Shown here one piece after another: positions 9,740 to 42,914 of a stretch of 64,000 nt of DNA. Origin of the DNA: Raillietiella orientalis (taxonomy: Eukaryota); assembly GCA_036172245.1 (NCBI GenBank), contig JAYWIR010000002.1:3410001-3474000 (forward strand), given 5' to 3'. Made by a program: the position numbers and the translations under genes. The notes beneath the pieces were generated by a model that was given only the letters and a program-made list of their open reading frames with translations, was not told the DNA's origin and did no database searches. Numbering within the stretch: the stretch's first letter is position 1; each line of letters begins with the position of its first letter.

Positions 9740-10700
9740 CGAGGCTGTCAACGCGTGCCGAGGGCGCACTCGGCGGAAGGCAGGTGAATGGCGCCGGTCG
9801 TCATGTCGAACAGGACGTCGAACTGCTGGGGCGGCGTGTCCGTCGATGAGCGCGACAGCAGCACGCCGACGGGGGCTACAGAGCAGGTTCCCATGATTAC
9901 ATTTGTAACGAGGCAGGACCAAGTGTCCTGCCACCGACTTCTAAGTTTATGTTATATAAATAAACGCTCCGGCGCAACCGGCTGTCAAGCCGCGTCCCCA
10001 GAAGTTCCCTGCTGTGTCCGTGGAATCGTGGCAGCCTGGAACGCGGGAAGAGACCAGAATGGCAGAGACGCCATTCACTGGGTGCGGATCTTTTTGAAGA
10101 CCGCCGCAAGATAACCTTACCTGGGCAACATGAGAACCGCTTGTCAGCATCTTGACAGGATGCAGAGGACGCCTCTCAGGGAAACATGATCTCTTCCCCC
10201 TCTTCCTTCCTCAAGAAGCTCTTCCTCCTGCTTTTTTTTCTTTTTTTGTTTGTTATTTTGCGGTTTACCCTCCCACTCGCTGCTTCGGAGTGGACCTCCC
10301 TGGTCTCCGTACCGGTGACCGGCAACTGGAACGCATGCGGTACCCCAGGGGTTTCACTACATGACCAACTGATTGTTCTTGTATTATCTTTAATAATAAA
10401 TGCTCCGGAACAACTGGTGAAAAACCTGCAAGAGGAAGTCAAGGAGGAGATCGCTGGCATGCAGCGCTGGTTTTGAAAGAGTGGCACGGGCAGGTTCTGG
10501 GTTGGGGCAGGGATCTTCGGATTCCCTTTGCTGTTGTTATTGTTGTCTCCCACCTCCCGCCCCGAACTTTCGAATATCCCGACATGAATGTCTGTAGACT
10601 CCCCCCATTCAACTTCTTTTTGCCTTTGGTTGGGAACGCGCTGGTTCTAGAGAGAATCTGCAGGAGATGCCACCAGAGGAGGAATCCTTTGGGATGAACA
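9740..10700 (-). pseudogene. Decayed paralogue of the pepsin-fold genes, opposite strand
   Basis: Minus strand ~9850-9755 reads TDTPPQQFDVLFDMTTGAIHLPSAEC then a stop, matching exon 3 of the intact genes. NLPVPLFQNQ at ~10500-10465 resembles the exon 2 end (YEVPLRYYQ). A LINE remnant lies between the two pieces. The exon 3 match is firm; the overall extent is tentative. Confidence 0.7.
10005..10424 (+). mobile_element. Decayed LINE 3' end
   Basis: CCVRGIVAAWNAGRDQNGRDAIHWVRIFLKTAAR matches CCIRGILDKWTASRRGRTSRDAIHWAAI. T-rich UTR, AATAAA at 10395 and terminal gctccgg...ctggtgaaaaa follow. Confidence 0.8.
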
Positions 10701-16682: not shown

Positions 16683-17088
16683 GTGCAGAACTTATGAAAC
16701 GTCAAAAGGACTTCCAAGTGAGAAAAAGGTGCATAAACAGTGTGAATGAAAGTGTATTGTGGATGTAAAAGAAAATAAATTTACCCCACCCCTTGTGGGA
16801 CTAGGGGAAAACGTACTATGCAATTTCCCGAAACCTCGAAAGATCTGGCGCCGAGCAAAGAGGGTTTCGAGTTACTCCTAAGAAGCCGACGGCAGCCAGA
16901 GAAGATCAGAAGGAGTTCCCAGAAGCCCCCACGCTGGTGAGGGGGATCTCCTTAGCTTCCGCGCTTCCCAGTTGGTGGTGTGAGTTTGTTTTCGAGCCGC
17001 AACCAGACGTCGCCGACTCCGACGAGCAGCTCGTGAGCATCTCAGAGCTCCCAAGTGTCGGAGATGCAGATGAGCCCGGATGGAGACG

Positions 17089-17095
17089 TTTATAA
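17089..17095 (+). promoter_or_regulatory. TATA-like box upstream of pepsin-fold gene A
   Basis: TTTATAA begins 48 nt before the ATG at 17137 and is conserved at 32900-32906 for gene B. Confidence 0.5.
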
Positions 17096-17136
17096 CCGGG
17101 ACGATTCCTCGTGTCTCGAAAATCGTCGGCAGCAAG

Positions 17137-19954
17137 ATGGAACTCAGTGGACTCCTGCTCTTCTTTTGTGCGTGCTCGTGAGTGTCCCTCTTGGAGCAGA
17201 GCCCCTTTTCGCAGCTCCCGGGGTCTGCTCTCTCTTAGATCCATCCGTTTGTACATGAATGCGCAAACCGTCACCACCAGCACCACCTGCACCACCGCCT
17301 CCACCAGCAGCCCGGAGACGAGAACGCCCACCAATTCCTACGAGGTGCCACTGCGTTACTACCAGGCGAGTTGTTGCGGCGATCGCGAACGGCTCCGGAC
17401 GGGCAGTTACTCTTCCAGAAGCAATTCTTCCACACCTCGATGACCGTCGGCACACCGCCCCAGAAACTCACTGTCAAGTTCGACACGACGACAGACGCTC
17501 TCTACCTGCTTTCCTCCGACTGCAGGAGCGAGTATTGCAGTGAGTGACAGCACGCGGGAAGCGGCCGCCGTCGGCGACAGTGCTGTTCACTCTCCCCCCC
17601 CCCCTTTCTCAGAAACGCTCCCTTCATACAACAGCGACCACTCAAATACTAAGATCTTCACCAGCCTCTACGGAAGCCACGTGCTCCTTAACGAGACTCT
17701 CGCCGGCGCCCTCCTGCTGGACTCCACGGAGCTGGTGCGTAGCCGACGGACCGTTCCCCCGGCATCCTGGGCTAAACGCAATCATTTCTGAGCAGTTCTC
17801 ACCGTCCCCTGACAACGCGCGCCACGACAAATCCCCCATCCGGATATACGAGTACGTGCTACCGTACATCCTGAATCCTCTCCCATACGGACTCCTGAAA
17901 TATTCAGTCGGCCAAGCGCTGTACGGCATCGACAAGCCGGCGTTGAGGATGCTGGCGAAGGCGCTGGACACGGAGCCCATCCTACATCTGGAATTCGACC
18001 CGTAACCGCAAGGGGCGAGGGTGGACGAAAAGACATCGCCCTCCCCCTTCCCCTACCTTCCAGGTGGCACGACAAGGCGAAGATCGTCGTGGGAGAGAAC
18101 CTCAATGACATCCAGAAGTGCGAGTTCGAGGAGAACCGGCTGAGAGACCCCGCATCCAAATTCTACAAAATGAAGATCTTCAAGTAAGGCGAGCTCTTCC
18201 GCACGTGCGTTTCGAGGACAGCGCAGTGAGCGTCCCTCTTTGCGCTCTTGGTCTTTTCGCTTGCCCGTCACGCGCGGTCCAGGCGCCCTAGGACCTGCAG
18301 GGAACGGTTGCTCCCTCTATGCGGGAAGTACTGGACCGACACTCATGCATCTGCTGGAAGAAGCTCCCAAGAGTCGGAGGCGAGTTGTCGGGAACGTTCG
18401 TTTTTTTTTTTCCTTGCCATCCGAGCAACTCTGCGCGCCCTCCATCTGCAGTAGAATTCCCCTGTCGCAAGGCACCCGGATTCACCGTTCATTCCAGAGT
18501 GCTCATTAATGACCAAGAGCTGGCAATCAACAAGACGATGGTCAACCAGACGGAGGTCATCAACCAGTTGGTGGTAATCGACTCCGTCAACCCTATCTTG
18601 AAGGTTTCGAGCGAGTTCATAGATATGATCGCCGCAGCCACGAGAGCCCGGAGGGACTCCGCATTCGGCGGTCTGCTGACGGTGAGGCGACCTGACCGTC
18701 TGACTGACCAGTCCCGCCACCTGTCTCCCGGCAGATAGAGTGTCAGAACCTACCGGAAACCTACCAGATGCCCGTGATAACCTACTGGCTGAACCCCTAC
18801 TACTTCGTGAATCTTCGCCCCGACGACTACATCCTCAAAGTACGTGGAGTCGCCGTTCGATCACGCGGAACCGTCCAGACAGACGTCTTCGCGCGCAACC
18901 TGCGTGGATCAGCGAGGAGCGCGCACGCCAAGTGCACCGCTCCTCTGCTGCTCGGCTTGAACATCGCCGCCCCACGCGCGTAGGAAAAGCCGACAGCCAG
19001 CTGCCCCGGGCAGGACGCGGATTACGCAGCTTCCCGCTGCCGCCGCACGGTTCTGGAGCCCGCTCCGAGGGACACATGCAGCAGCTTTCATGTCCGCTTC
19101 TCCTTGAGCAATGGCGTGCACTCTACGTGGACCTGAACATCCCCCCCTCTCCGTCGTCTCCTTCACCGCCGTTTCCTTCCGTTAGCATTCTCTTCTGCCA
19201 GCTCGTCCATTTCCCGGGAACCGCTATTTGCTGTGAGGGGAGCGTTTCCCGGGAGGCGCTGGACTTCCATCAGTCCTGCTGGCGAAGGAGTCGCGGAGCT
19301 TAAGAATATCCGTGCGTCTTTTCAGTCATCCTCCGAGGCAAAACAGTGACCGGGTTTTGCTAGAGCGGAGGGGAGAAGGGAAAGGCGTGGCGTGGACAGG
19401 AGCTGCTGCTATCTACCTTGGTATGCCGGCGCGCTTGCGAATGCACCGTTTCCCGCGTGTTCCCTGCGGAACTGGCTGCGCCCTTCCGCACGCCGCTGTC
19501 CGACTCGTCCGGGGAGCGCCCAAGTGCACGCCGCGTCGGGCTTCGTTTTCTAAGGGGGCTCGCTCTTTCGCAGGCGCTCCCTTTGCGCTACCCACTTGCT
19601 TGCTTAGCCATTCGTGCTGTTCACTGATCACCTTTGAGCTCTCCAGCTTTTCCTCCTAACCACCCCTAACAACCCGCTGTGAAGCAAACAAATACGCCGC
19701 GCTTCTACACATCGCCGCACGATGGCAGCACCTCGCAGAGGGGAACACGGCTCGAGAGCTGCTCACGAGCCTCTTTTCAGTTCCCGCACAACGACAGAAC
19801 TGTGTGCGCATTCATGTTCTCTGACAACATGAAGACCTCGTTCTCCGAGGGGTGGAGTCTGTCCCTTCCGATCCTCAAGCGGCTGCACGTGAAGATCGAC
19901 CTGGACCGGTCTTCCGTGTTCTTCAAAACCCGGAGGGAGTGGAAGCCCTCTTGA
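17137..19954 (+). CDS. Secreted pepsin-fold (A1 family) protein with non-canonical catalytic motifs, gene A, 9 exons, 399 aa
   Basis: Manual model: 17137-17177, 17239-17365, 17419-17539, 17613-17734, 17796-18001, 18064-18183, 18498-18681, 18735-18839, 19781-19954 (1200 nt, open frame). Hydrophobic N-terminus MELSGLLLFFCAC; motifs TVGTPPQKLTVKFDTTTDALYL, VVIDSVNPIL, MPVITYWL...LRPDDYILK, WSLSLPILKRLHVKIDLDRSSVFF. Intron 2 is GC-AG. AATAAA at 19982. Confidence 0.9.
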
Positions 19955-20789
19955 AAGGCATCGAAGACCGCCGAAGCGGTCAATAAAGCTCTTCCTGGAG
20001 CCCGGGTGGTCGTTCCGGAGGGACCGCGAAGACGGGCGCCTCCCTCCGTCTGGAGCTATGCGCCCTCCGTCGCTCGCGCAGGCGTCCAGAGTGGTAGGGT
20101 AGGCGCCGACCGAACTGCGTGGCTGGAGCCGGGAGCACCCTGGCCGAGAGGGAAGCGACGCAGTGGACCCTGCAGAAGCTACCGACTCACTCGCCGTCGC
20201 CGCCACAGGATCGGAAGTGGCTCTCTTCCTGCTCCAGCGATCTTCCCAGGTCCCAGAGGGAAGTCGAACCCTCAAGGACGCGGCAGTCGCGCCGGGGTAC
20301 TCCCCTGCCACCGGGGGTCGTTCTCGCTACACCTCCCATGGGCTAGTTCCCCTTCTACACTCTCCATCTCTGGGAACAACCCCCGGTTTTGCTGTCCGGA
20401 GGAGGAACGGTAGCTCCCGCTGTAACTTCGAAACGCATCGCGAAGACGAGACGGTAGGCTGGGCCGGGAAGTCGCAGACTGCTCATGCGGAAACGCACCC
20501 GTGGCCAGAAAGAAGAGGTAGAAGGGGAAGACGTCCAACGATCTATTCGGCAAGGGTCCTCCTTATTTCCAACAGGAGACTGGTCCGACGCCGTTAAAGC
20601 ACCAACGGAAGAGCGAAGGCAACAGGGTGATCAAGCAGGGATCTTTTCCACAGATGCCATGCATCGTGACCCCGCGCTGGCCGGCTGGATCCGCCAACCC
20701 CTTTCCTCCTTGGAACCTCTGCGAACTCACCCGAGACCCCTCGGCCTTCAAGAGGATCCCCTCCGAGGAGATTCCCTGGAGGAGGAGGA

Positions 20790-21250
20790 TACTCAGAAAG
20801 CAACGGGAGCTCTGCCACTACAGAATCGTTATCTTGCCAACAGGGATTCCACCACCCGGAAGCCGTCCGCAGCTCGACGTCCTGTTCGACACGACCGGTA
20901 CCACCGGTGCCTGCGCTGCGGCTTCTTCTCTCTGCAGCTGCCATCTTGGCGATTACGCTTCATCTTGCTGTTGTCCTCTTGCTGTTTCCGCTGCCGTAAC
21001 TTCTGGCTTTGGGAGAGGAAGCAGGTCAAAAGTCCCGGTCAAGATCGCTCCCTGGACCCATGAGTCGCGAGTCCTCTTCGTCCTTGCGATAATCAGGCAG
21101 CTGCAGCGCTCACGTCCTCGCTTCCGCTTCGGCCAGCCCTCACACGGCCTCTCGAGGCTTCCCGAAACCTCTCGTGCGGCAGTCCTTGCTGCTTCCGACC
21201 AGTCCCTGCGCGGGGCCTATGTGAAGTCGGCGTGGCTCAAAAAGACCCAA
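20790..21250 (+). pseudogene. Decayed pepsin-fold paralogue fragment
   Basis: PQLDVLFDTTGTTG matches the exon 3 motif, and DQSLRGAYVKSAWL resembles NETLAGALLLDSTEL. No clean exon model could be built. Confidence 0.55.
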
Positions 21251-22054
21251 CGGTGCGGAAACTCCCGTCTTGAAGACGGTGACCCCTTGCGCCCGCGAGG
21301 GCAGGCATGGCTGAAAAGACACGAGCGACTGCCAGAAGCAGTCTGGCTCCTGATCCGGTTCGGCGACAAAGCACAAGATGGCAGAACAAACTGGCATCGG
21401 CGTCGTTTATCTGTCCCTTACGAGGTGGCGCGGCGTGCAGGCATTTTTCGAACCACCACACGCGCCTTTCCCGTCCCCACTCCCCTGTTCCAGAACAGCA
21501 AATGCGAACCCACGTTGCAGCCCTGCTCCGAAGAGACCCGCCCGCAGCTGCTGCCCCGCGCGCACGCGCGCCCGTGTGTGCAAACTCGGGAAACCCTGTT
21601 TCCGTGACGCAAGAAACCGCGCTGTCCGCAGGTGAGGAAAAGGTGAGCGGAGTTCGTATACACCGTACACACACACTCGTGCAGACCTCATCCTGCATGT
21701 TCGTTCCCCCCTGCCGCATCACGCGTGTGCCTGCTGCACTTGTGTGCAAGAGTGAACGCACTCGTAGTGACGGGATCGAGTTCCGCACACGGGGAAGCTG
21801 CGGGTAACCAAGATGTCCGGAGACGGCACCGCGGACCTCCGACCTGGCTGGAGCAGAGGGGAGGAGGGAAGGGGGGAATTTCCGGTGTCCCTTCGACTCC
21901 GCAGCGTTGGAGACACGACGTCATTTCCGCTAAGCTCATCGCGAACTTTGCGAAAAACACATCTCCAGCAGCTCGCGCCCCGTCCTGAAAGATCGCCCGA
22001 TCCAGGAGGCGAAGCAGCTGCTCGGACCTTCGACGGTGCCTGAATCCATCTTGC

Positions 22055-22088
22055 ATCGCTTCTCTGCCTTTTGGCTAAGATCAAAGTG
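22055..22088 (+). pseudogene. U2: 3'-truncated U2 snRNA retro-fragment with 14-bp target-site duplication
   Basis: ATCGCTTCTCTGCCTTTTGGCTAAGATCAAAGTG corresponds to U2 nt 1-34. It is flanked by tgaatccatcttgc at 22041-22054 and 22087-22100. Confidence 0.93.
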
Positions 22089-25000
22089 AATCCATCTTGC
22101 GCGCACCCCAAAGCTTGCCATCAACGGTCGTCCGGGAACTAGCCGGAGACGTCGAAAGCACGTCTGCTTGCCAACGCCTTTGTCGCAGAGCAGCCGGGGA
22201 CTGAAAGCAGCGTCTGGGCAAATCCCCACGCAACTTCCGTGGTGCTTGCGAGCGAACCGTCTCGCCCTGACCGGCCGTTCTGCGGGGAACCCGTCCGGTG
22301 CACCCAACTGTCCCGCCCGAGGACCCTGCCGACGCGGCTGAATCAGCTGGCGAGTTCGAGAGCCCGCGCCTCTGGACTTCCCCTCTCCTCCATGCCCGTC
22401 TCGCGCGCAGAATGCCGCCTCCAGCCCGGGGTCTCGGACGAGGAAGAAGCCTCGAACCCACGAGCGAAATCGGAGCACCACTCGTTTGTAGACCGTAACC
22501 GCCACCTCGCCACGAAAGCGTCGAACGAACTTCACACTCCAGGAAAGCCGATGAATGGAGCTTGCGCTCGCGAAACAAAGCCTTTGTCCGCTATCCGAGG
22601 AGGCAGCGAGGCCAAAGACGGATTGCTGGACTCGTTTTGCCGTGCCGTGCCTCCTTTCGAAGAAGATTCGGCCAACAGCATTCTGCGTGAATGCGTTGAG
22701 CTCTTTCGGACCGCACGCTCCGTTGCTAAGGGGGAGGCAGTCTGGTCCAATTTATACATTTCCGGCTGTGGGCAGCACGTTGCTAGCCGTTGCTAGCGAA
22801 CGCCTCTATATATAGCCCCCGGGAGCATCCCTTCCGAGCTGCGCACACCATTGTTAGCCGCAGCGTCTGCACGCGGTTCGTGCTCTTGTTACGCGGATGA
22901 ATGAAGAGCGTCGTCTCATCTTGGAGGCAATTCTATCTGTCTGAGCAAACGAACGTTCCTCGGTAAAATGCATCAACGAAGTGTTTGTCCACGAGCTTTA
23001 TCGAGCTCGCTGCATTCACAAACAAAAGGCGGGCGATGCGTGCCGCACACGTTCCACGGTTTCGCTCGAAATGCGAACGGAACTGCGGAGAGGAAGAAGG
23101 AAGGCAAGAGACGTTCGCAGAGGTGCTCAGGGAACCCTTGAATCTGGAATGTGGCGCCATCAGGGGACGGATGTATGAACCGTGCAGCGCAGACACTACA
23201 CGACGTGTCCTCCGAGGGAGCAGTGGATGGATATTCGTTAACGGCACAGGTACGCAGTGCCGTGCGTTCTGTTTCAAGGGCGCGATCGACGCCCACACGG
23301 ATCGACTCCACTTCCCTTATTCCTTCTGGACGCTCCCGGATAGGCAGCACGTGCGTCCTGGCTGTGGCGACCTGCGGCGGGCGTGTCCCCGATGAATGTT
23401 CTCACGACACCGGACACTGGAGCTGTCTTCACGTGCCCTGCCCGCGTGCGAGGGATCCTGGCTCCTTGGGCGGCACCCCGAAGCCGCCCTTCGAGTCTCA
23501 GCGACGCAACCAACCGGTTCTCTCGCTATCCTTCGTCAACGAAACGAGGAGCCATTTCCCCTTCCCCTCTCCGTGCTTCCCCCGACGCTGCTGCCGCGTT
23601 CCCCACGGCGAGGACAGGCGACGTCGAGGCGAGTTCCGTTCTGGAGCACCCCCGCCACGTCCGGTCGGAAGCGTCCCATAGGAATTGGCACGCTGGAGGC
23701 CGCCGGACCGCGCATTCCCTGCCGTCGCTTCCCTGATGAGGCGACAGATCCCGGACGACCAGGCCGCTCGGTAGCGAGGTGGGGTCATTTCGCACGCGCC
23801 GACCGAGGGCATGCGGCAACGACTCTTCTCCCACTCTCGCCAAGTCCTCAGGGCACTCGCCCACGGAAGGCGCCCCCTCCCGGTTGCCAGGCGAGATCCA
23901 ATGGCGCCGAAATGCGGAGAAGAGGCCGCGTCCTCCGGCTTTCCAGAGGCTTGCCCGGACTTGGAAATTTCGCCTGGAGCAGCGCCGCCTGCGAGGTCGT
24001 CTCGCGTGCCCGCAGCTCCCGTCGAGGGAGTCTCCGGCAGGAATTTGCGGCTCCGAAGGCGGGCAGCGCCGGAGAAAGGCGAGAGCGAAGGGCGCCGGAT
24101 GGGAGCTGGCGGCGACTCGAGAGAGGACTCGTGATCACGGGCTGCTGCTGCCGGAGCACCCGGTGTGGCAGTTCGCAGGGGTGGTATCCACGTCCTTCCG
24201 GGGGTCGGGGAGGAAGCGGCCACCATCCCGGTAGGGGGGAAGCGTCGATCGAAAGGGGGTGGGAAGGAGGAGGAAGGGAAGGGGAGGGGAGGAGGGAAAA
24301 CGGGCGAAGCGCCAACTCATACGAACGCGCAGCATGACTCGCGTCCCGCATCGCCTTCGGCATCCTCTCGGCTGGTCATCGTGCGCGCGCACGCGTGCTG
24401 ACGCCTTTCCCGCGACACACCAAGTGCACGCCGGGCACCGACCGTCACCTCGACCCGAGTGTGCGACAGTTGCCCTCCGCGGAGCACACGGCTCCGTCGT
24501 TTTCTTCCCCGCGCGTCAGGCCCCTTTCCCGCTTCGGAGTGCGAAAGAAGAGCGCTCCACGATGCGGTCTTCCACGCGGCCAAGGGCCCGGATACGATTG
24601 ACGAAGGTAATCAAACAGACAGAGGTAGGACGGGGACGGGCCCTCGAGGTGCATCCCTCCCGAAGGTGCGGCAGAAGGAGGAAAGAAATGGAGGGAGACA
24701 GAGGCCACCGAGGTCTATATACGTACAATCGCACCAATTCTCCAGGGCGCGCGCCTCATGTCGCAGAGGAATCTCCTGGTGACGGCGGACGCCATCTCGA
24801 TCTCGCCGACGCAGTGGTGCTTCTCCAAGACAGGAGCCGCCGCGATGCTCGTGGGAAGGACAAGAGCGTGGGGAGAATCGAACAGCACGGGAGGGGGGGT
24901 GAGAGGGAGGGAAGCTGGAGACATCGCCCACACTGTCAACGGGAATCAAACCAACTCGAACATGAAGGGTGTGCAGCGCGCGCCCTACCATGACGGACGC

Positions 25001-25399
25001 TTCCCGCGCTCTCGAAGCTAGCGTGGGCCGCAGTCCAGGTAATCGGAAGCTAAAAATAGACGGCAACAATGAGTGAATGTTTGATCGATTAAACCGCTTT
25101 TTGCCATCTGGTTCGAGTTGTGGGTGGGATGCCTGTCGGAATGAAACTCCGTACCATTCCCAGGTTTGTGTCCTCCTCGAGTGGATTGCGGCCAGTTGTG
25201 CGGATGCAGGCTGAACAACACGGGACCCGTTCCAGGTCGGGAAAAGTGTAAATAACTGCTTGCGGGCCCACGTGAGAGACTGAGAAAATCGATGTTCAGG
25301 TTTCGGTCGAGCAGGTTTTTCGATGACGGCGAAGGCAAGGGCGGTGCTCTCAGCCGAACGGACGGCATCTGGCGTGCTCCCCTTCCCCCACCGTGCACC

Positions 25400-25900
25400 G
25401 ACACCCGTGGAGTCTCTCCTTCGCCGGGTTCCGCCGTTATCGCGAATGCCGGCCCAGCTCTTCAGGTCCTGTTCAAAGCCGTCCTGCCCAGCTTCGGAAT
25501 GAAGAGCGGAGCGGATAAAAACCCAGAGCTCCCGAAGGGAACCTCCGGCTGCGCGAACCTCCACTTGGAACGTCTTGGAAGCACGGCACAGATGGCTAAC
25601 AACGGCGAGCTCCGAAGGAGTGAAACGCAAACTCGGGTGCGAGCAAAGGACAGCCCGAGCACGACCTCTAAGTTTCCTGTGATCCAAATGAATAAGATCC
25701 AACGTCTCAAACACCAGCTTCGAGCGGTGGAGGAGGAGGAGAACAGGAAGTGTTCGGGATCGGCGTGTCTCCAGGAAACCACGGCGAAAATCGCACGCGG
25801 CTGCGAAGACCATCTCGACGAGCGGACGTGTGTCCTGTGCCTTCACGCACGCTCTCGACTGGGCCGGCAGGCAAACACTTCATTGCTGGAGTCCGAGCTC
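25400..25900 (-). mobile_element. Decayed LINE ORF2 C-terminus (duplicated at ~41179-41679)
   Basis: Across frames: VKAQDT (cf. PPDTQDN), GLRSRVRFSPWFPG (cf. GLLSRARLSHWTSG) and DPEHFLFSSSSTARSW (knuckle H...W spacing). Confidence 0.55.
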
Positions 25901-26669
25901 TCGAACAAACACGGAAGACTTGCCTGCGAGAACTGGGTGCATGGGCTTAGCTCAACGGGAGCGGATGACGCGAATTGATCCGGAGGGTAGTTTGAGTGCA
26001 AACACGCGACGGCATCCAGAAAACAACCAAGGGACCAGGAGGCAGCTGCGAGCAAGGAACGAGCCACGGAGCTCGTCCGTTCACGACGCATTTCGAAAGC
26101 TTCTTCTGAGAGAAGGTTAAACTCCGCGGTCTTTAGCAAGAAGTTCAAAAGTGTTGCGAAGTGTTGCTATGGAAAAGGAGCAGCAAAGAAAAGAAAAAAA
26201 AAAAAAAAAAAATGGGCGGGGGGGGGGGGGACTTAAATGAAAAGGGTTACTTCACGAAGATTCAAGTGGAGGACGATGCACCGCATCTAGGATTGCAGAG
26301 GAAGGAAAGTCTCGATGCGCAACCCATGGAAGAGGCATCGCTCAGAGGATGCCTGAGCTTGCAGCCTAGGGTTGACCAAAGAACATGTTGAGCCACTCGA
26401 TCCCGACCGCCACTTCGCCTGTAGTCAGCTGGGCTGGAGGGATAGCTGGCTGGAATATGGCTGCAGTCTCACCTGGTCACGCCGGGGCGCTTCTTGTACG
26501 GAAAAATACAAAGTCTAACAGTAGGTCATTTCATGATGGTGCGTTGGGACAGTGCAGGGCCGCGCGTTCCGCAGGAGTCCCCAGCTCGGAGCCGTCGCCG
26601 GAAGAGGTCTGCGCAAAGAAACTGGGGGGAGGGGCGAAAAACAACAACAGCAGCAAAAACAAATCAATA

Positions 26670-27135
26670 GACATTAAATAAATAAGTGCTGAAGTGTTTA
26701 AGGGGAAGACCCGCCCGGCGGAGAAGTCCTTTCTTTCGGGCGCTCCTCGAAGGGAGCGGTGTGCTTCTTGCACACACCGATGAGGTGTCATCAATCCACC
26801 AGCTCCTTGGTACGAGATGCAGGGTCACCGCTGAGGGATGGAGCGACGTCTCCTTTGCACAACCGGAGGGGAACTACCCATTCCTTATTTCTGTTTCCTG
26901 GAAAGGCCCCAGAGGGTCGACTTTTAATCTCGGCCACTCATCGGTTACATCCGGTTTGAACCGCTATTATCGTTGCCGCACCCGAATGCAGGCCAACCAG
27001 CGCCATCTGGAGGGAGAAGCTCGAACCCACGACGCACCCATTTCTCTGGCGTCGATCCTTCCCCGAGTGGGATTCGAACCGGCGACGCCCGGTGTCTCGA
27101 GCGCAGACGAAAACCACGTCGCCTCCGATGTGGAG
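26670..27135 (-). mobile_element. Candidate tRNA-derived SINE
   Basis: The minus strand has an A-box-like ggaggcgacgtggtt (27126-27112) and B-box GGTTCGAATCCC (27080-27069) at tRNA-like spacing. The body contains hairpins and ends in cttatttattta. Confidence 0.5.
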
Positions 27136-27399
27136 AGGGCGGCGAGGGTGGAAGGGCGAGTCATCTGATGCTCTGCCCAGAGTCCCAGCCAGTCTTCTAC
27201 CTCCCTTCGACCTCGCACATTGTTTCCCATCTTCCAAGCGGGACATTGACTGTCCTGGAACTCCCCCAGGGACCACAGCGTCGCGGCAGAAGGGGCTCGC
27301 TGGATACACGGGTTTATCCACGGAGCAGTCCATCCATCATCCCCTTCGGTGGGCAGCGAGCGCAACCGGAGCGCCGCAGGCGTCGCGTTTCCTCCAGGC

Positions 27400-27800
27400 T
27401 CGAGCCGCTGATCCTCGCCAGCGCCTGAGATTCTTCCCGTCTCCAGACGCCACAGCTCGTCAGCGAGCAGGAGACCAGGCACCAAGGCAACGCGTGCCGA
27501 AGCAAGCGGCCGCCGCACCGCGCGCCTTCTTGGGCCAGTTGAGTCCCTCCGAGCCGGCTGCCCGCTCGGCCAGGATCAGGGCCGGAGCGCACCAGAGGGT
27601 GCTGCGGAACTTCCCCTCCCGGGCTGTCCTTCGGAACAGCTCCTTTCCAGAGTGGGAACTCACAGGAGTCCGTCTTCCCGGCGCGGGAATCCGCTCGCAG
27701 CTGGAAGGCGGGGAGCGGTCCCGTGCCGGTCGCACGAGGCGAAGCAGGTCAAGAAGGAAGGCGTTCCGACCGGCTTGAGCCGTGCGGGGCGCGTGCTGCG
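27400..27800 (-). mobile_element. Possible decayed LINE ORF2 C-terminus (duplicated at ~43179-43579)
   Basis: GRNAFLLDLL resembles QRNAILLAHW, and RVALVPGLLLADELWRLETGR resembles RTTIALFITTILVRWWKMRKAR. Confidence 0.4.
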
Positions 27801-30379
27801 CAACCATCTGGTCATCGGAGCCCGGCCCTCAGCGCGGGAAGGAGAGTCCACCCTTCTTCTGCCCCACTTGGCCTTTCCCCGCAAGTGCAACACGCGCCGC
27901 CTTCCCCCAGCCCGTCCGTCGTCGGTGGGTCCTAAGCCCATTCCTGCTCGGGCTCTCGTCCGAAGCTCCACCGTTTTGTGCAAGCCGCTCCGACGCCCCA
28001 ACGCCACAGATGACCGCTTCCGCTTACAGCAGGAGGAGGACCCCTCTCCCAAGGCATGACGAAGGGAGGGCGGCGGCTTCCCGAGGACCTCCGACGCGCC
28101 ACTGCCACGGGGCGCGGGAGCGGCCAGCTCTCGTCTTCAGGAGGGCGACACGCGCCGCACGAAGTGTGCGGGCGCGCGTCGCCCGCAAGGAGCACTGCAG
28201 GAAGAAAAGCGGAGGAAAGCTCCACGACGGAAACCCTCCACCGGACCCGGGACCGATCGCTCCCCGCGTTGCCCGGGCGACCGCTTGGTCCTTTACGCCT
28301 CCAGGGCAGCCTCGCGTAAAGCGACGAGGCACGGCTGGTGGATTGGGAAGCTTCCGGAATGGCGAACAGGTTCCGCAGCGGCCCGTCGGACGCTGGGCTC
28401 ACGCAAGCACGAAGATGGCGCGAGAGGGCTCAGCAGAAGGGATGCCGTCGCGCCTCGGTCCTGACCCCTTCGCGGTGAGAAGATCGGGGGTGCCCAGATG
28501 CAGGCGACGACAAAGCAGCAGCATCCGGAAGGGCTGCCCGCACTACGGGACCGGCGGAGGAATTCCAGGAAGTCCCTTTCGGGAGCACCCTTACCCTACA
28601 GCGGGAGATCTCGAGGAGCACCGACGTCCCTACTTTAGGAAAACCTGGAAGGAACGGTGGGATAAAAGGGGAGTTCCAAAATTACGACCTGCCCTCGGGC
28701 TTTTTTTCCGCGAAAGCATCCCTCCGTGGGAACCATCTCCGGACATCTCCTCCGAGGGACCGGGAAGCGTTCAGGAGAGGGGAGTGAAAAACTCAGGCGA
28801 GTCCCTGCGGTCGGCTTTCTTCCCATCCGTCCTGGAGCCACCCCGTTGAAGACCGCTCCTTGGCGCGGTAGGGGCCCTTCATAGGATGGGAACACCCGGG
28901 GGTCCCCGAGGGGCCGGTGATTTAACCTCTGGGTTCGTGAGGAACCCTCCCTCGTGCGCGGGAGCCGCTCCTGGCTCGGAGATCCCGGACGGATCTCCCT
29001 CTCCTTGGGACCGCTGCCGCCGACTCAGTGCAACCCTTCACCCCCCCCCCCTCCTTCGTCCATCCTGGCGCGGGACCTTCCTCCTTCCGGGAAGCGGGGG
29101 ACTCTCCTGGTGGAGGAGAGGGTGGAGCCCGAGGCGGGCGGGAGGTGTCTACGTGTTTCTCCGGGAGTGCGGGAGTGCGGCCCGCGGCAACTCCGCGACT
29201 CCCCTCGGAGGACCTGCCGGCAGGCCACCTGCTTGCGCCCAGAGGCGACCGCCCAACACGTTGCTCTGCTGTGCCCTTGCCGCGCACGCGAGGAAACGTA
29301 GCCGGGAGCGTCTCTCGGCGTAGCGTCCGCTAGGACAAGGGACGCTCCGCGACCGGGACGCCGGAGAGCGGATCTTCCAGCTGAGGAACGTGGAAGAACG
29401 GGACAAAGTGAACCGGGATGCGCGCGCCCTGCCACGTCAAAGAGCGGGAAAGGGGACGATGAGGCGAAGCGGCTGCCGCACCGGGAACCGCGCGTCCGAG
29501 ACGCCAGGAAGCCGCCAGGTGACCAGGACGGATCGGTCTTGCGCCCTTCGCTATGAGACGGGGCCCGAGAACCTGGCACTTCCTTGGAAAGCGGCCCCGG
29601 GGCCACAGCGTCCGAGTGCAAAGGGGGAGGGGGGCAATCCGGTAGGGCTCTTCGGGCAGAGCAGCAAAGGAAGCAAACGGTGGAGGAAGGAGGAAGAGCA
29701 AAGTCGGAGGCAGCAACAAGTCACCAGCCGACAACTCCGAAACGGTGGAGCCTCATCGAAAAGTGGCATTGGTGCAGAGTGGACACCCTCCTTGGCGTCT
29801 TCCACCCCAACCCCAGGCGAGCCCACGGCATGCATCTCGTGAAGTCGTGCCGACTTCTTTGCAACCCGAGGTGTCGTGGGACTCATGTGTAGAGCAAGCG
29901 GGAGCCACAAGATGCCCACGGAAAGAAATAACCCTAGAGTCAGGCGCTTCCGGTTAAGGGACAGCAGAATCTGCGGCAAAGATAGAAGGGAAACAGTTCC
30001 GTCGAAGGTGGTAGCGAGATCGGTTGGAAACCAAACTGCCCGCCTAAGTGCTCTCGCTCTGCAGCCTCCTTCCGACGGGTGCACAGGAATGCGTCTTCGT
30101 GATGTTTCAGCAACCACCTGCAAGTTTTGTTCGCATTCCGTTTGCACACGCTGACTGTACACCAAACCACGGATTGTTTGCGTGTCTGTGTTTCTTAGGA
30201 TTTGGTCCGAGGTTTGCACGCAGCTCGCCAAGCACAGGCACCTGCCCGTGAAAACGCCGGAATCGGGAAGCGTGAGCACCAACCCTCGTTTCCAAAGTGA
30301 GCGGAGTAGCTTGCATGACCCTCTGAGTCTGCACCACTGGCGCTGCAGGTACTCGGGGTTGCGGACTCGAGAGAGTGAT

Positions 30380-31026
30380 GCGACCTGATGCAAAAGAGCC
30401 TGGAGAACATTTACACACCGTCCTTATACTGCAGCTCTCCTTGTCGTTGTCCTCCTAGCACCAGTCCAGAAACCAACCGACCGCATAAACACACCTCAGG
30501 ATGAAAGCTAGTATCGGCAAACATGGTACCTGAGTATGACTCCAACCCAAGGACGCATCTAGTGCTGCAGAAGACGAATAAGATGATCGTCCTTGAAGTT
30601 TCCCGTACGACCGACAACGCGGAAGAGGTATTCAGCCTCACAGGAACGCAAAAAGAAGACAACTGCCAGGAAATCGCCTTCCTTTTGAGAAATGAAAGAA
30701 TTCAGGCCAAAATCTAAGCGATCATGTTCGGCGCGCTAGCAGCCTGGGACTTGAGAAATGATGGGGTGATACTGAGTATCTCGAAGCAGCATGCGGAAAC
30801 AATGAGGCATCTGATGCCTACTAAACAGCGAGGATGTCTTCTGCACCCAACGATGGGGACATCCTCCTGCAGACGGCATTAAGCGACCAGTTGTCGAAGC
30901 GGCTGCGGATGAAGAGTCCGCATTAAATCCATGAAAACTGAAGCCGCTGTCGAGAAATTTAGAAATACGGGGGAGCTATACAAGTTATGTGCTTGTACAG
31001 AACGTAAGCAAATTAATAAATAAAAA
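30380..31026 (+). mobile_element. Decayed 3' end of a Utopia/NeSL-type RLE non-LTR retrotransposon
   Basis: KLVSANMVPEYDSNPRTHLVLQKTNKMIVLEVSRTTDNAEEVF...QKEDNCQEIA...I*AIMFGALAAWDLRND...MRHLM fits the RPDLV...IIDV...FDN...KxxKY...GALGSWDPxND pattern. A 3' UTR with AATAAATAAAAA directly abuts U2 sequence. Confidence 0.85.
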
Positions 31027-31064
31027 TATGTTCTAATCAGCTAAATGCCTGATACGCCACCTAT
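31027..31064 (+). pseudogene. U2: U2 snRNA internal fragment (about nt 39-76), the downstream half of the target site
   Basis: tatgttctaatcagctaaatgcctgatacgccacctat versus U2 tctgttcttatcagtttaatatctgatacgtcctctat. Stem IIa (ATCAG-8 nt-CTGAT) is intact. No Sm site follows. Confidence 0.8.
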
Positions 31065-32947
31065 CTGCAGACATCAACGACCTTTGGGAAGAAACCTCCT
31101 GTACTGCTCCCAGGCACAGACAACGCACCAAGCTACCGCAATTCAATCTTGCACGCGCAAACTGGAAGAAACGGGAAATTTCCACGAGGAAAAAAATACA
31201 GCCACCTGGCCGCTAAAACAACGCCTCCTCTGATGGGCTCCGGAAAAACAGCAACTTTTAGGGGATCGTCTGGATTCCTCCTCAGGAAGGCATCACCCTT
31301 ATCGGCGAAAGTGACGGCGTCCATTCAACCTAAGAGGGGGGGGTCTCCTAAAGAATTCTTCCGTTCCTTTCGCTCCGTACGCACGTCCTTAAGCCTCTCG
31401 ACCTTGGATTGTCCTCATTTTGCAGCCCGCTCCTCCCCTTCCGCACTTGAGTCTCCATCCGCTTATGCAGGCACCACACCTCTGGGTCACAAGAAGGTCG
31501 GACCTCTTTGTGTTCCCGGAGGGAAGTCAGCCGCATCTTCCGGAACTCAGTCTCTCACTCAAAGTGCTTCCATGAGCCGGTCTCCCTTCGCACCACTCTG
31601 TTCATGCCGTCCCTCGAGCGTTGCCAGGGCATGCTTGAAGGGTTCGGAGGTCTGGAGACCGCCAATACCGGCTTTCTGCGTGCTGCCATGTGCCGAGGAC
31701 ACACTCGGTTGATGGGAGGAGGATGGCGCCTGACTTCGTGTCGAAAGGGACTTCGAGCTGCTGGGATGGCGTGACTGACGGTCATCAGTGACCCGAACGG
31801 GGCTCCTTCGGAACCGGGCCTTTCGGAATCGCGGCAGTTCGCCCGACGGCATCTCGGCGGCGACTCGTTGGAGTCAGCGGGACTCCCCTCTCCCGCGTCG
31901 CCTTGCGACCAACTCTGTCATGGTGGTCAGGATTCAGGGCACGCGCACGACCGAAACACCTCGAGAAACGGAAGCCAAGGGAGACGCGGGTGAGCTGTCC
32001 TGCCGGGGCACTCTTTCTTTCGCAGGCGGACTCCGCACGACCATCGCCGAGAAAGCAGGAATTCCGTGCAGGAGAGCGTCGAACCTCCCCGTCGCGTTTC
32101 AAGCTGTCCTTTTCCTCAGAAGGACGCAAAAGGAGTGCCCACGAGTGAAAAAGGACCAGCAGATCGCGGAGAAGAGCGCACGAGAGACGGCGCGCTGGAA
32201 GCAGAGGCGGTGCGAGAGCGCCGACGGCGCGTCCATCTGTCATAGACGCAAGAAATCGCTCTCACGTGCCGCGCAGGAAATCAACAACTCCTTGGTACGA
32301 CCCCACCTTCGATGGCACTCTTCCGTGTGCATCGGAAAAAAGTCGCTTTCTAAGCTCTCCAGATGAGGGAGCCTCCAGATTGGGGAAGCCGACACGTGAC
32401 GTCTTCGTCCGCCAGATTTCGACGCTGCCGGACCAGGGGTGGTGGCGAAGGGGGGAAAGCAGATTTTCTTCCCAACAGCCTGCTGGCGGTCCTTCGCGGC
32501 AGGGTTGATGGAAGGCAATCTCAGTTTCTCTCTTCGTTCCGGTACGAAAGGCCTCGTACCGAACGGAGAGAGACGTGGCAAGAGGTCGACCAGAGAGGCA
32601 GGAACGTGGCCTGCAATTTTCCGAAACCTGGAAAGATCTGGCGCTAAGCAAAGAGGGTTTCAAATTACTCCCAAGAAACCGACGGCAGCCGGTGAAGCTC
32701 CGATGGAGTTTCCGGAAGAAACGGCGAGTCCACGGAACGCGGGTGATGGGGAGGGTTAGCGAAAGCTGTGTTTTTCAAATTTGACGTCACAACATGCCTG
32801 CCTTCGAGCACAGCCAATCCTCTCCGACACCGCCGAGCGACTCGAGAGCACCTAAGGACACCCAAGTGTCGGAGATGCAGATGAGCCCGGATGGAGACGT
32901 TTATAACCGGGACGATTCCTCGTGTCACGAAAATCGTCGGCAGCAAG

Positions 32948-35733
32948 ATGGAACTCAGTGGACTCCTGCTCTTCTTCTGTGCGTGCTCGTGAGTGTCCCT
33001 CTTGGAGCAGAGCCCCTTTTCGCAGCTCCCGGGGTCTGCTCTCTCTTAGATCCATCCGTTTGTACATGAATGCGCAAACCGTCACCACCAGCACCACCTG
33101 CACCACCGCCTCCACCAGCAGCCCGGAGACGAGAACGCCCACCAATTCCTACGAGGTGCCGCTGCGTTACTACCAGGCGAGTTGTTGCGGCGATCGCGAA
33201 CGGCTCCGGACGGGCAATTGCTCTTCCAGATGCAGTTCCTTTACTCCTCCATGACCGTCGGCACTCCGCCACAGAACTTCGACACCATGTTCGATACGAC
33301 GGCCGGCGCCATTTATCTACCTTCCTCCGACTGCATCAACCCGTACTGCAGTCAGCGGCAGCACGTGGGAAGCCAGAGACAGTGACGCTTCCGTTTCTTC
33401 CCCCTCCCCGTTTTCAGGCAGGCTCGTCGTGTACTACAAAAGCCAGTCGAAGACCGCCATCTCCAGCAGCCTGAATGGAAGTCACGTGCTCCTTAACGAG
33501 ACTCTCGCCGGCGCCCTCCTGCTGGACTCCACGGAGCTGGTGCGTAGCCGACGGACCGTTTCCCCGGCATCCTGGGCTAAACGCAATCATTTCTGAGCAG
33601 TTCTCACCGTCCCCTGACAACTCGCGCCACGACAAATCCCCCATCCGGATATACGAGTACGTGCTCCCGTACATCGTGAATCCTCCCCCATACGGACTAT
33701 TGAGATATTCCACCGTGCAGGCCTTATACGGCATCGACAAGCCGGCGTTGAGGATGCTGGCGAAGGCACTCGACACGGAGCCCATCCTGCACCTGGAACT
33801 TGACCCGTTAGAGCACGGGACGAGGGCGGACGAAAAGACATCGCCCTCCCCCTTCCCTTACCTTCCAGGTGGCACGACAAGGCGAAGATCGTCGTGGGAG
33901 AGAACCTCAATGACATCCAGAAGTGCGAGTTCGAGGAGAACCGGCTGAGAGACTCCGCGTCCAACTTCTACAAAATGAAGATCTTCAAGTAAGGCGAGCT
34001 CTTCCGCACGTGCGTTTCGGAGACAGCTCCGTGAGCGTCCCTCTTTGCGCTCTTGGTCTTTTCCCTTGTCCGTTACGCGCGGTCCGGGCGCCCTAGGACC
34101 TGGAGGGAACGGTTGCTCCCTCTATGCGGAAAGTCCTGGACCGACACCCATGCATTTGCGGGAAGGAGAAGCTTCCAGGGGTCGGAGACAAATTGTCGGG
34201 AAGTTAGTTTTTTTTTTTTTTTTCCTTGCCATCCGAGCATCTCGGAGAGCCCTCTACCCGAGAAAGACTTCCTTTGGTGCAAGGCTCCAGGCTCCCCTCC
34301 TCTTTCCAGAGTGCTCATCAACGGCCAGCAGGTGACCACGAAACAGACGATCGTCATCGACTCCGCCAGCCCCATCTTGAAGGTTTCGAGCGAGTTCATA
34401 GATATGATCGCCGCAGCCACGAGAGCCCGGAGGGACTCCGCATTCGGCGGTCTGCTGACGGTGAGGCGACCTGACCGTCTGACTGACCAGTCCCGCCACC
34501 TGTCTCCCGGCAGATAGAGTGTCAGAACCTACCGGAAACCTACCAGATGCCCGTGATAACCTACTGGCTGAACCCCTACTACTTCGTGAATCTTCGCCCC
34601 GACGACTACATCCTCAAAGTACGTGGAGTCGCCGTTCGATCACGCGGAACCGTCCAGACAGACGTCTTCGCGCGCAACCTGCGTGGATCAGCGAGGAGCG
34701 CGCACGCCAAGTGCACCGCTCCTCTGCTGCTCGGCTTGAACATCGCCGCCCCACGCGCGTAGGAAAAGCCGACAGCCAGCTGCCCCGGGCAGGACGCGGA
34801 TTACGCAGCTTCCCGCTGCCGCCGCACGGTTCTGGAGCCCGCTCCGAGGGACACATGCAGCAGCTTTCATGTCCGCTTCTCCTTGAGCAATGGCGTGCAC
34901 TCTACGTGGACCTGAACATCCCCCCCTCTCCGTCGTCTCCTTCACCGCCGTTTCCTTCCGTTAGCATTCTCTTCTGCCAGCTCGTCCATTTCCCGGGAAC
35001 CGCGATTTGCTGTGAGGGGAGCGTTTCCCGGGAGGCGCTGGACTTCCATCAGTCCTGCTGGCGAAGGAGTCGCGGAGCTTAAGAATATCCGTGCGTCTTT
35101 TCAGTCATCCTCCGAGGCAAAACAGTGACCGGGTTTTGCTAGAGCGGAGGGGAGAAGGGAAAGGCGTGGCGTGGACAGGAGCTGCTGCTATCTACCTTGG
35201 TATGCCGGCGCGCTTGCGAATGCACCGTTTCCCGCGTGTTCCCTGCGGAACTGGCTGCGCCCTTCCGCACGCCGCTGTCCGACTCGTCCGGGGAGCGCCC
35301 AAGTGCACGCCGCGTCGGGCTTCGTTTTCTAAGGGGGCTCGCTCTTTCGCAGGCGCTCCCTTTGCGCTACCCACTTGCTTGCTTAGCCATTCGTGCTGTT
35401 CACTGATCACCTTTGAGCTCTCCAGCTTTTCCTCCTAACCACCCCTAACAACCCGCTGTGAAGCAAACAAATACGCCGCGCTTCTACACATCGCCGCACG
35501 ATGGCAGCACCTCGCAGAGGGGAACACGGCTCGAGAGCTGCTCACGAGCCTCTTTTCAGGTCCCGCACAACGACAGAACTGTGTGCGCATTCATGTTCTC
35601 TGACAACATGAAGACCTCGTTCTCCGAGGGGTGGAGTCTGTCCCTTCCGATCCTCAAGCGGCTGCACGTGAAGATCGACCTGGACCGGTCTTCCGTGTTC
35701 TTCAAAACCCGGAGGGAGTGGAAGCCCTCTTGA
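32948..35733 (+). CDS. Secreted pepsin-fold (A1 family) protein with non-canonical catalytic motifs, gene B, 9 exons, 388 aa
   Basis: Manual model: 32948-32988, 33050-33176, 33230-33350, 33418-33539, 33601-33806, 33869-33988, 34310-34460, 34514-34618, 35560-35733 (1167 nt, open frame). Motifs MTVGTPPQNFDTMFDTTAGAIYLPSSDC and IVIDSASPIL. TATA-like box at 32900; AATAAA at 35761. Confidence 0.9.
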
Positions 35734-36568
35734 AAGGCATCGAAGACCGCCGAAGCGGTCAATAAAGCTCTTCCTGGAGCCCGGGTGGTCGTTCCGGAGG
35801 GACCGCGAAGACGGGCGCCTCCCTCCGTCTGGAGCTATGCGCCCTCCGTCGCTCGCGCAGGCGTCCAGAGTGGTAGGGTAGGCGCCGACCGAACTGCGTG
35901 GCTGGAGCCGGGAGCACCCTGGCCGAGAGGGAAGCGACGCAGTGGACCCTGCAGAAGCTACCGACTCACTCGCCGTCGCCGCCACAGGATCGGAAGTGGC
36001 TCTCTTCCTGCTCCAGCGATCTTCCCAGGTCCCAGAGGGAAGTCGAACCCTCAAGGACGCGGCAGTCGCGCCGGGGTACTCCCCTGCCACCGGGGGTCGT
36101 TCTCGCTACACCTCCCATGGGCTAGTTCCCCTTCTACACTCTCCATCTCTGGGAACAACCCCCGGTTTTGCTGTCCGGAGGAGGAACGGTAGCTCCCGCT
36201 GTAACTTCGAAACGCATCGCGAAGACGAGACGGTAGGCTGGGCCGGGAAGTCGCAGACTGCTCATGCGGAAACGCACCCGTGGCCAGAAAGAAGAGGTAG
36301 AAGGGGAAGACGTCCAACGATCTATTCGGCAAGGGTCCTCCTTATTTCCAACAGGAGACTGGTCCGACGCCGTTAAAGCACCAACGGAAGAGCGAAGGCA
36401 ACAGGGTGATCAAGCAGGGATCTTTTCCACAGATGCCATGCATCGTGACCCCGCGCTGGCCGGCTGGATCCGCCAACCCCTTTCCTCCTTGGAACCTCTG
36501 CGAACTCACCCGAGACCCCTCGGCCTTCAAGAGGATCCCCTCCGAGGAGATTCCCTGGAGGAGGAGGA

Positions 36569-37029
36569 TACTCAGAAAGCAACGGGAGCTCTGCCACTAC
36601 AGAATCGTTATCTTGCCAACAGGGATTCCACCACCCGGAAGCCGTCCGCAGCTCGACGTCCTGTTCGACACGACCGGTACCACCGGTGCCTGCGCTGCGG
36701 CTTCTTCTCTCTGCAGCTGCCATCTTGGCGATTACGCTTCATCTTGCTGTTGTCCTCTTGCTGTTTCCGCTGCCGTAACTTCTGGCTTTGGGAGAGGAAG
36801 CAGGTCAAAAGTCCCGGTCAAGATCGCTCCCTGGACCCATGAGTCGCGAGTCCTCTTCGTCCTTGCGATAATCAGGCAGCTGCAGCGCTCACGTCCTCGC
36901 TTCCGCTTCGGCCAGCCCTCACACGGCCTCTCGAGGCTTCCCGAAACCTCTCGTGCGGCAGTCCTTGCTGCTTCCGACCAGTCCCTGCGCGGGGCCTATG
37001 TGAAGTCGGCGTGGCTCAAAAAGACCCAA
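36569..37029 (+). pseudogene. Duplicate of the decayed pepsin-fold fragment
   Basis: Same LDVLFDTTG-containing sequence as 20790-21250. Confidence 0.55.
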
Positions 37030-37833: not shown

Positions 37834-37867
37834 ATCGCTTCTCTGCCTTTTGGCTAAGATCAAAGTG
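37834..37867 (+). pseudogene. U2: Duplicate of the TSD-flanked U2 5' fragment
   Basis: Identical to 22055-22088, with the same flanking repeats (37820-37833 and 37866-37879). Confidence 0.93.
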
Positions 37868-42448: not shown

Positions 42449-42914
42449 GACATTAAATAAATAAGTGCTGAAGTGTTTAAGGGGAAGACCCGCCCGGCGG
42501 AGAAGTCCTTTCTTTCGGGCGCTCCTCGAAGGGAGCGGTGTGCTTCTTGCACACACCGATGAGGTGTCATCAATCCACCAGCTCCTTGGTACGAGATGCA
42601 GGGTCACCGCTGAGGGATGGAGCGACGTCTCCTTTGCACAACCGGAGGGGAACTACCCATTCCTTATTTCTGTTTCCTGGAAAGGCCCCAGAGGGTCGAC
42701 TTTTAATCTCGGCCACTCATCGGTTACATCCGGTTTGAACCGCTATTATCGTTGCCGCACCCGAATGCAGGCCAACCAGCGCCATCTGGAGGGAGAAGCT
42801 CGAACCCACGACGCACCCATTTCTCTGGCGTCGATCCTTCCCCGAGTGGGATTCGAACCGGCGACGCCCGGTGTCTCGAGCGCAGACGAAAACCACGTCG
42901 CCTCTGATGTGGAG
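42449..42914 (-). mobile_element. Duplicate of the candidate tRNA-derived SINE
   Basis: Copy of 26670-27135 inside the duplication. Confidence 0.5.

Follow-up and report, generated by a model that had tools for sequence, protein, structure and literature searches.

The question raised by this locus is how two neighbouring genes can be almost identical over most of their length when short segments inside them differ at about 30% of positions. The genes, called A and B here, lie in a 64,000-nucleotide window from Raillietiella orientalis (assembly GCA_036172245.1, contig JAYWIR010000002.1, positions 3,410,001 to 3,474,000 of the forward strand), the window being the whole stretch of DNA that was analysed and its first letter being position 1. 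They are predicted to encode secreted, very divergent homologues of the pepsin fold (peptidase A1-like). The reading favored here, to which a probability of about 0.68 is given, is that A and B are old tandem paralogues between which non-allelic exchange took place repeatedly, so that the divergent islands would be the remnants that were never converted.

Self-BLAST and global alignment revealed a direct tandem duplication with an offset of ~15.8 kb between the two units (Table 1). By self-BLAST, 18574-29665 aligned with 34353-45445 at 99.865% identity over 11093 columns, and 16991-18506 with 32803-34318 at only 87.6%. The right edge of the A/B homology is abrupt, at 29665/45445, and the left edge lies at 16819/32612, where unit A is abutted by the end of a long interspersed nuclear element (LINE) remnant. 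The spacer between the units has no homology to either flank except for an exon-3-like relic. Both genes were modeled by hand from reading frames and splice sites; their open reading frames (ORFs) are intact, the splice sites are conserved in both copies and valid even within the islands, and the one coding indel is in frame. The exon structure is nonetheless predicted, chiefly with regard to a GC donor and to which start codon is used. Intron 2 (53 nt; 17366-17418 and 33177-33229) begins with GCGAGT in both copies, and all other donors are GT. An alternative 5' model, with ATG 17064, intron 2 read through and a His-rich N-terminus, is in frame but was judged less likely, because it has neither a signal peptide at the N-terminus nor the pepsin-like N-terminal strand, and because two of its three A/B differences would be replacements. 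Under the preferred model, both coding differences are synonymous.

Segmentation with a three-rate hidden Markov model (HMM) of the region ending at 18750 divided the aligned genes into near-identical tracts that alternate with islands of 272, 61 and 167 bp. Such a mosaic was not reproduced by chance: the longest identical run, 183 columns, exceeds the 123 columns reached at most in 10,000 permutations, and the index of dispersion of the differences is 6.72 against a maximum of 1.83, with 0 of 10,000 permutations reaching the observed value in either case. The residue differences given in the original prediction for exons 3, 4 and 7, with identity in exons 1-2, in the latter half of exon 4 and almost everywhere past the second Asp motif, were reproduced exactly, and additional differences came up in exons 5 and 6. 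The same prediction took cleft-forming exons as the divergent units, of which the clustering proved real, but the divergent parts are DNA tracts that cross exon borders and appear to touch the cleft only partly. In fact, none of the four sharp tract borders falls on an exon-intron junction, and the islands take in intron 3 in its entirety as well as intron 6 at its 3' side. The middle tract is heterogeneous, with 40-column windows of 98-100% identity between 18025 and 18144.

Table 1. Features of the duplicated locus and its surroundings, in window positions. Identities and residue differences compare A with B; dS and dN are synonymous and nonsynonymous divergence, with the confidence interval (CI) of dN/dS in brackets.
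Feature	Position	Position in copy B	Strand	Basis or comparison
Duplication unit A: gene A and ~9.7 kb downstream without Pfam match	16819..29665		+	self-BLAST
Duplication unit B: gene B and tail		32612..45445	+	self-BLAST, global alignment
Unique 2.9 kb spacer between units, with family relic	29666..32611			tblastn
Gene A, 9 exons, 399 aa	17137..19954		+	spliced frame open, AG/GT(GC) borders
Gene B, 9 exons, 388 aa		32948..35733	+	spliced frame open
Exon 1	17137-17177	32948-32988	+	DNA 97.6%, intron 1 100%; 0 residues differ in exons 1-2, 2 synonymous changes
Exon 2 (GC donor)	17239-17365	33050-33176	+	DNA 99.2%, intron 2 96.2%
Exon 3	17419-17539	33230-33350	+	DNA 72.7%, intron 3 64.2%; 16/40 residues differ
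Exon 4	17613-17734	33418-33539	+	DNA 77.9%, intron 4 98.4%; 13 residues differ, all within the first 20; second half identical
Exon 5	17796-18001	33601-33806	+	DNA 89.3%, intron 5 88.7%; 7 residues differ
Exon 6	18064-18183	33869-33988	+	DNA 97.5%, intron 6 84.4%; 2 residues differ
Exon 7	18498-18681	34310-34460	+	DNA 89.4% plus 33-nt indel, intron 7 100%; 10 substitutions and 11-codon indel, last one two residues past second Asp
Exon 8	18735-18839	34514-34618	+	DNA 100%, intron 8 99.9%; 0 residues differ
Exon 9	19781-19954	35560-35733	+	DNA 99.4%; 1 residue differs, at first codon
Tract T1: from the 5' untranslated region (UTR) through exons 1 and 2 with intron 1 into intron 2 (most of it)	17050..17405		+	99.2%; 3 mismatches/356 columns
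Island V1: exon 3 with FDTT and intron 3, flanked by the final 13 nt of intron 2 and the first half of exon 4	17406..17677	~33217-33482	+	67.7%; coding part dS 0.805, dN 0.352, dN/dS 0.44 (0.19-0.91)
Tract T2: latter half of exon 4 (flap-equivalent segment), all of intron 4, beginning of exon 5	17678..17860		+	98.9%; 2 mismatches/183 columns
Island V2: within exon 5	17861..17921		+	75.4%; dS 0.78, dN 0.14, dN/dS 0.18 (0.03-0.92)
Middle heterogeneous tract: exon 5 from 17922, intron 5, exon 6, intron 6 up to 18427	17922..18427		+	92.1%
Island V4: intron 6 from 18428, exon 7 (first half) to just past second Asp	18428..18594	~34240-34373	+	69.4% plus 33-nt in-frame indel; dS 0.513, dN 0.214, dN/dS 0.42 (0.12-1.31)
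Tail T5	18595..29665		+	10 substitutions and 1 indel in ~11.07 kb; 100% to 18750 in HMM region
Paralogue C, exon-3-like segment (FDMTT motif)	9751..9876		-	tblastn E 6e-7 and 4.5e-10; AG and GT borders plausible
Relic D, exon-3-like, +1 frameshift relative to A/B	~31689-31781		-	tblastn; in spacer
Weak exon-4-like piece, downstream of relic D	30927-30986		-	tblastn
Weak exon-3-like match (FDTTG) within long open frame	20840-20947	36619-36726	+	tblastn E 0.16-0.8
zf-CCHC, LINE remnant upstream of unit A	12262-12531		+	Pfam
RVT_1, LINE remnant upstream of unit A	14750-15202		+	Pfam, E 4.5e-21
zf-RVT	3137-3607		+	Pfam; inverted 95% copy at 11691-11086 (11086-11691, -)
mir-184 precursor	63624-63710		+	Rfam RF00657, 60.4 bits against gathering score 54.1

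The tracts fall into divergence classes: the tail stands at 0.09%, the pair of 5' identical tracts at 0.93%, the middle tract at 8% and the islands at ~30%. The two 5' tracts differ at 5 of 539 positions and the tail at 10 of 11068, a ten-fold difference in rate (Fisher p = 4e-4); from 18598 to 29665 the copies are separated by these 10 substitutions and one indel, or ~0.1%, and 8 of these 11 are found from 27126 onward (3 against 8, p = 6e-4, post hoc). Because there are at least three such classes, several exchange events of different ages are implied. Furthermore, the identity spans introns 1, 2, 4, 7 and 8 (96-100%) as well as 11 kb in which no Pfam domain was found among the scanned ORFs of at least 90 aa, and the likeness of A to B is therefore not a matter of protein-level conservation. 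That scan comprised 18 + 150 + 150 stop-to-stop translations, a few of them duplicated, from 363 ORFs of at least 90 aa, and left out the ORFs that overlap gene A and those in most of the stretch at 60-64 kb. Sharp-bordered, near-identical tracts of the kind seen here, which include non-coding DNA and lie between otherwise diverged paralogues, are the pattern by which interlocus gene conversion is recognised. The repeated gene conversion or unequal exchange originally predicted is thus supported by the intron and tail identity together with the multiple divergence classes. Mosaic divergence by interlocus conversion in tandem paralogues has also been documented elsewhere (bioRxiv 10.1101/2025.10.29.685298; PMC3728101).

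A model is proposed in which most of the repeat of two old tandem paralogues would have been overwritten by non-allelic exchange at different times. The latest exchange would be very recent and at least 11 kb long, running from the middle of exon 7 to the end of the unit, and since the tract reaches the repeat end, it more likely represents unequal crossover or long-tract repair. Older and shorter conversion tracts would extend from the 5' UTR to intron 2 and from exon 4 to exon 5, and a still older conversion from exon 5 to intron 6, so that three islands and the promoter region would have escaped exchange and retained the original divergence. At ~30% mismatch, the extension of a heteroduplex in homologous recombination would be halted. 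This is the probable reason for the persistence of the islands, with exchange tracts stopping at the island edges; selection for keeping two protein variants may add to this persistence. A poly-T run in intron 6 (18403-18413 in A, ~34211-34227 in B) differs in length between the copies and lies directly upstream of the 18427/18428 border, where it could serve as a stopping point for exchange tracts.

The family to which A and B belong was recognised from two exons. Exon 3 of A matched the Pfam family Asp, PF00026, at 23.6 bits (cut-off 19.9, E 4.1e-5) as a fragment-only match, and exon 3 of B fell slightly below the cut-off (18.8 bits, E 1.2e-3). In the PDB, phmmer matched exon 3 to cathepsin D, chymosin and pepsin (best E 1.8e-4), aligning it to pepsin residues 15-50 with the first Asp and the Cys45-Cys50 pair (Cys 91 and 96 of A). 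Of 30 feature hits that the ESM Atlas gave for exon 9, 29 were aspartyl-protease (PF00026) clusters, with a score of 0.93 and 183 shared features. The remaining A and B exon pieces matched no Pfam family, the sole extra match among these pieces and the relics being a chance-level DUF6177 (E 0.21). PDB searches returned no match for exons 4 and 7 and a single irrelevant mannanase for exon 9 (E 0.42); exon 7 gave no usable match in the ESM Atlas, exon 5 none among 1.84 billion representative proteins, and exon 7 and exon 3 of B had no homologue in a word-indexed collection of longer proteins.

Both Asp are retained, the first motif reading DTT (FDTT) in A and B and the second DSV (IDSV) in A and DSA (IDSA) in B, so that the D-T/S-G catalytic motif of A1 is absent from both lobes of each protein. 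The second Asp-Ser follows the first Asp by 196 residues in A and 185 in B, the spacing in pepsin being 183, and no clear flap Tyr-Gly was seen at the gap-free homologous position. The N-terminus is short and signal-like and passes into a Thr/Ser-rich stretch, which stands in the place of the propeptide typical of A1 enzymes. Since both Asp are kept and yet DTT and DSV/DSA replace DTG, A and B are most likely non-catalytic, binding rather than cutting. Each gene has nine exons and eight introns, at positions that presumably coincide with those of animal A1 genes. Nine exons are also described for most mammalian aspartic peptidase genes (PMC2682831). A and B would belong to an undescribed, lineage-specific pepsin-like family that lost the catalytic glycine motifs.

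To place the changes in the fold, 46 was subtracted from the residue number of A to give the pepsin number in exon 3, as set by the PDB alignment ranges; the same offset was kept for exon 4, which is taken to equal its pepsin counterpart in length, and in exon 7 the second Asp was set to 215. The islands hold 44 substitutions in the proteins besides the 11-residue indel. On this numbering the changes lie at 11, 14-16, 26-30, 35, 36, 38, 41 and 46-48 in exon 3, at 51-70 in exon 4, and at 192-199, 212, 217 and 218 in exon 7, with the indel at ~201-211. By the same homology numbering, the flap-equivalent segment (71-82) and the whole C-terminal part belong to tracts identical between A and B. Positions 30, 35, 36, 217, 218 and perhaps 212 are assumed, from pepsin-inhibitor structures, to face the cleft, and the remaining changed positions (most of them at 26-29, 46-70 and 192-211) presumably belong to strands and surface loops beside it; what are taken to be the C-terminal pocket loops are identical. 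Most variable residues thus appear to sit in strands or loops next to the Asp motifs, outside recognised pocket positions, and the cleft label would be apt only in part.

A rather unlikely alternative is that the ligand cleft is under selection, either diversifying or balancing, which holds or drives the differences around both Asp motifs, with conversion homogenising the rest. By the pairwise Nei-Gojobori method with bootstrap CI, all islands together gave dS 0.715, dN 0.274 and dN/dS 0.38 (0.22-0.65), with the proportion of changed nonsynonymous sites (pN) below that of synonymous sites (pS) at p = 2e-4. For the parts of V1, the values were dS 0.779, dN 0.253 and dN/dS 0.32 (0.10-0.84) in exon 3 and dS 0.865, dN 0.598 and dN/dS 0.69 (0.23-2.1) in the first 20 codons of exon 4, and the gene outside the islands gave dS 0.054, dN 0.008 and dN/dS 0.14 (0.03-0.44). 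In no island did this A-to-B comparison yield dN/dS above 1, and in the islands the divergence of synonymous and intron sites equals or exceeds that of replacement sites, with intron 3 differing at a proportion of 0.36 of its sites and the 3' part of intron 6 diverged like the coding parts. The ratio being below 1, both copies have been under constraint since their divergence and neither is a pseudogene; purifying to relaxed selection probably acted on the islands in both. The claim of a diversifying cleft accordingly found no support, and an old tract with low dN/dS, named in the original prediction as an outcome that would speak against it, is what was observed. Selection aimed at the cleft also fits poorly with tract borders that ignore exons, with A and B being identical in the flap-equivalent segment and in every C-terminal pocket loop, and with the presumed location of most changes in strands and surface loops.

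Several observations nevertheless weigh against the favored reading, and some of them would also fit selection for difference. Island dN/dS is about three times that elsewhere (p = 0.05). In the exon-4 island, 13 of 20 residues are changed and replacement sites diverge at the intron rate (pN 0.41 against 0.36). Both Asp motifs fall within islands, for which the chance is ~0.10. Replacements beside the Asp occur at homology positions 30, 35, 36, 217 and 218, whose pocket roles are assumed as above. N-x-S/T sequons differ between the copies in the islands, A having NKT and NQT in exon 7 and B having NGS in exon 4; the two N-x-T sequons of A are additional ones carried by its extra 33 nt. These 33 nt (exon 7 of A, 18526-18570, plus strand) resemble an imperfect 15-nt tandem duplication whose first two units are identical at 11 of 15 positions. 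In other systems, islands that survive conversion have been taken as a hint of selection (PMC3728101). Moreover, 69% of the island sequence is coding against 47% of the remaining region, a comparison of three tracts only; dS of 0.7-0.8 is near saturation for pairwise Nei-Gojobori, and an average dN/dS below 1 is compatible with a few positively selected sites. A1 likeness is recognisable only in exons 3 and 9, from which the fold of the whole protein is extrapolated, and conversion is read from the pattern of only two sequences, whose near-perfect identity could be inflated by consensus polishing.

Further members of the family bear on the age of the islands. The segment called paralogue C may belong to a third, more diverged gene, of which no other exon was found in the window. 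Relic D, like paralogue C, is on the minus strand, which suggests an older head-to-head arrangement in pairs, C with A and D with B. Over 83 shared columns of the exon-3 core, identity is 71.1% for A-B, 71.1% for A-C, 75.9% for B-C and 78.3% for C-D; since A is no closer to B than either is to C, the A/B divergence in the islands is as deep as that between family members. Over the whole of exon 3, C, D and the weak 20840-20947 relic share 53-64% identity with A and B and align nowhere else, and Pfam assigned these three relics to no family. The match at 20840-20947 and its copy lie ~0.9 kb past each gene's stop codon and may be due to chance or to a very old relic. The nearby relics were ruled out as recent conversion donors in the manner of chicken immunoglobulin genes on account of this low exon-3 identity.

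The presence of such members and relics nearby, the tail divergence of only 0.1% and the nominally closer likeness of B to C than to A in the exon-3 core would agree with a recent duplication of the whole 12.8 kb unit, followed by patchy conversion of the 5' 1.7 kb of one copy from diverged family members. This course of events is considered improbable: four or five imports, promoter and introns included, would be needed from an intron-collinear donor, and no such donor exists in the window, where C, D and the 20840-20947 relic stay at the level given above and reach at most 76% on the 83-column core. The difference between B-C and A-B amounts to 4 of 83 columns, and the 92% and 0.9% tracts would need explaining as well. 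Still less credible is an assembly artefact, in which haplotypes or distant loci were joined in tandem or the copies homogenised by polishing. An 11 kb repeat of 99.9% identity is indeed hard to assemble, and polishing with multi-mapped reads can erase small differences; yet there is no N in the window, the repeat ends are sharp with unique flanks, and polishing could bring 1-3% to 0% but is unable to create 30%-diverged islands or intact genes in frame. A haplotig placed beside its allele is ruled out, since the spacer and the two outer flanks are mutually non-homologous. Against both of these accounts, repeated exchange between old paralogues is preferred.

The window as a whole is eukaryotic in character and GC-rich (GC ~0.6), with short GT-AG introns. 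Apart from the two genes, Pfam matches among the scanned translations were limited to three transposon-related domains. The pieces at 12262-16800 (plus strand), 3137-3607 (plus) and 11086-11691 (minus) belong to decayed retrotransposons without long terminal repeats (non-LTR). An AT-rich, AATAAA-containing end of such an element stands directly before the start of the repeat unit at 16819, and because of this position the left border of the A/B homology may be the insertion site of the upstream element. A 254-bp repeat of 94% identity, probably a transposon fragment, occurs upstream of unit A (10829-11082) and at the ends of both tails (29252-29505 and 45032-45285). The mature arm of the mir-184 precursor matches the model consensus perfectly, with C as its last base, and by this gene the window is assigned to a bilaterian; ~60% GC and introns of 53-73 nt in the region bearing it are unusual for a bilaterian animal.

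Among known systems, HMA4 of Arabidopsis halleri and GOT1p1/p2 of Tigriopus californicus are likewise tandem copies in which tracts of very low divergence alternate with highly diverged ones; the two reports attribute these mosaics to conversion with an effective rate that varies along the gene, such that islands outlast continuing exchange (bioRxiv 10.1101/2025.10.29.685298; PMC3728101). Compared with them, the contrast between A and B is extreme (0.1% against ~30%, dS ~0.7), and one exchanged tract, at least 11 kb long, continues up to the point where the repeat unit ends. With pepsin and cathepsin D (PF00026), A and B share the exon 3 alignment, the first Asp, the Cys pair and nine exons, but the Gly of both D-T/S-G motifs is replaced, by Thr in the first and by Val or Ala in the second, and a typical propeptide is absent. 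The cockroach proteins Bla g 2, Per a 2 and Lma-p54 (PMC9541408) and the ruminant 'modern' pregnancy-associated glycoproteins (PAGs; PMC2682831) are likewise secreted A1 homologues with substitutions in the catalytic center that are thought to be binders, and the PAGs form large, recently expanded families with a nine-exon A1 gene structure (PMC2682831). In contrast to these proteins, A and B are far more diverged from A1 enzymes and carry a Thr/Ser-rich region before the mature part along with the motifs DTT and DSV/DSA, and the relation is put forward as one of resemblance.

In conclusion, the locus provides a small and clean case of tandem paralogues that were nearly wholly homogenised with short old segments surviving, and three or four age classes of exchange are seen within one gene pair. 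The pattern is an ordinary one for tandem duplicates, and since there is ample precedent both for mosaic conversion and for inactive A1 homologues, the current understanding is unchanged. What is new would be an undescribed and very divergent pepsin-fold family in an animal with a GC-rich genome. A more far-reaching view, put forward tentatively and held to be doubtful, is that A and B represent a lineage-specific, fast-evolving family of secreted pseudo-proteases for binding or recognition, whose islands, lying around both former active-site loops, are kept apart by selection for two specificities in the face of very strong homogenisation that is still going on. If true, they would be an invertebrate counterpart of the PAGs, in which conversion and selection are opposed to each other within 1.5 kb.

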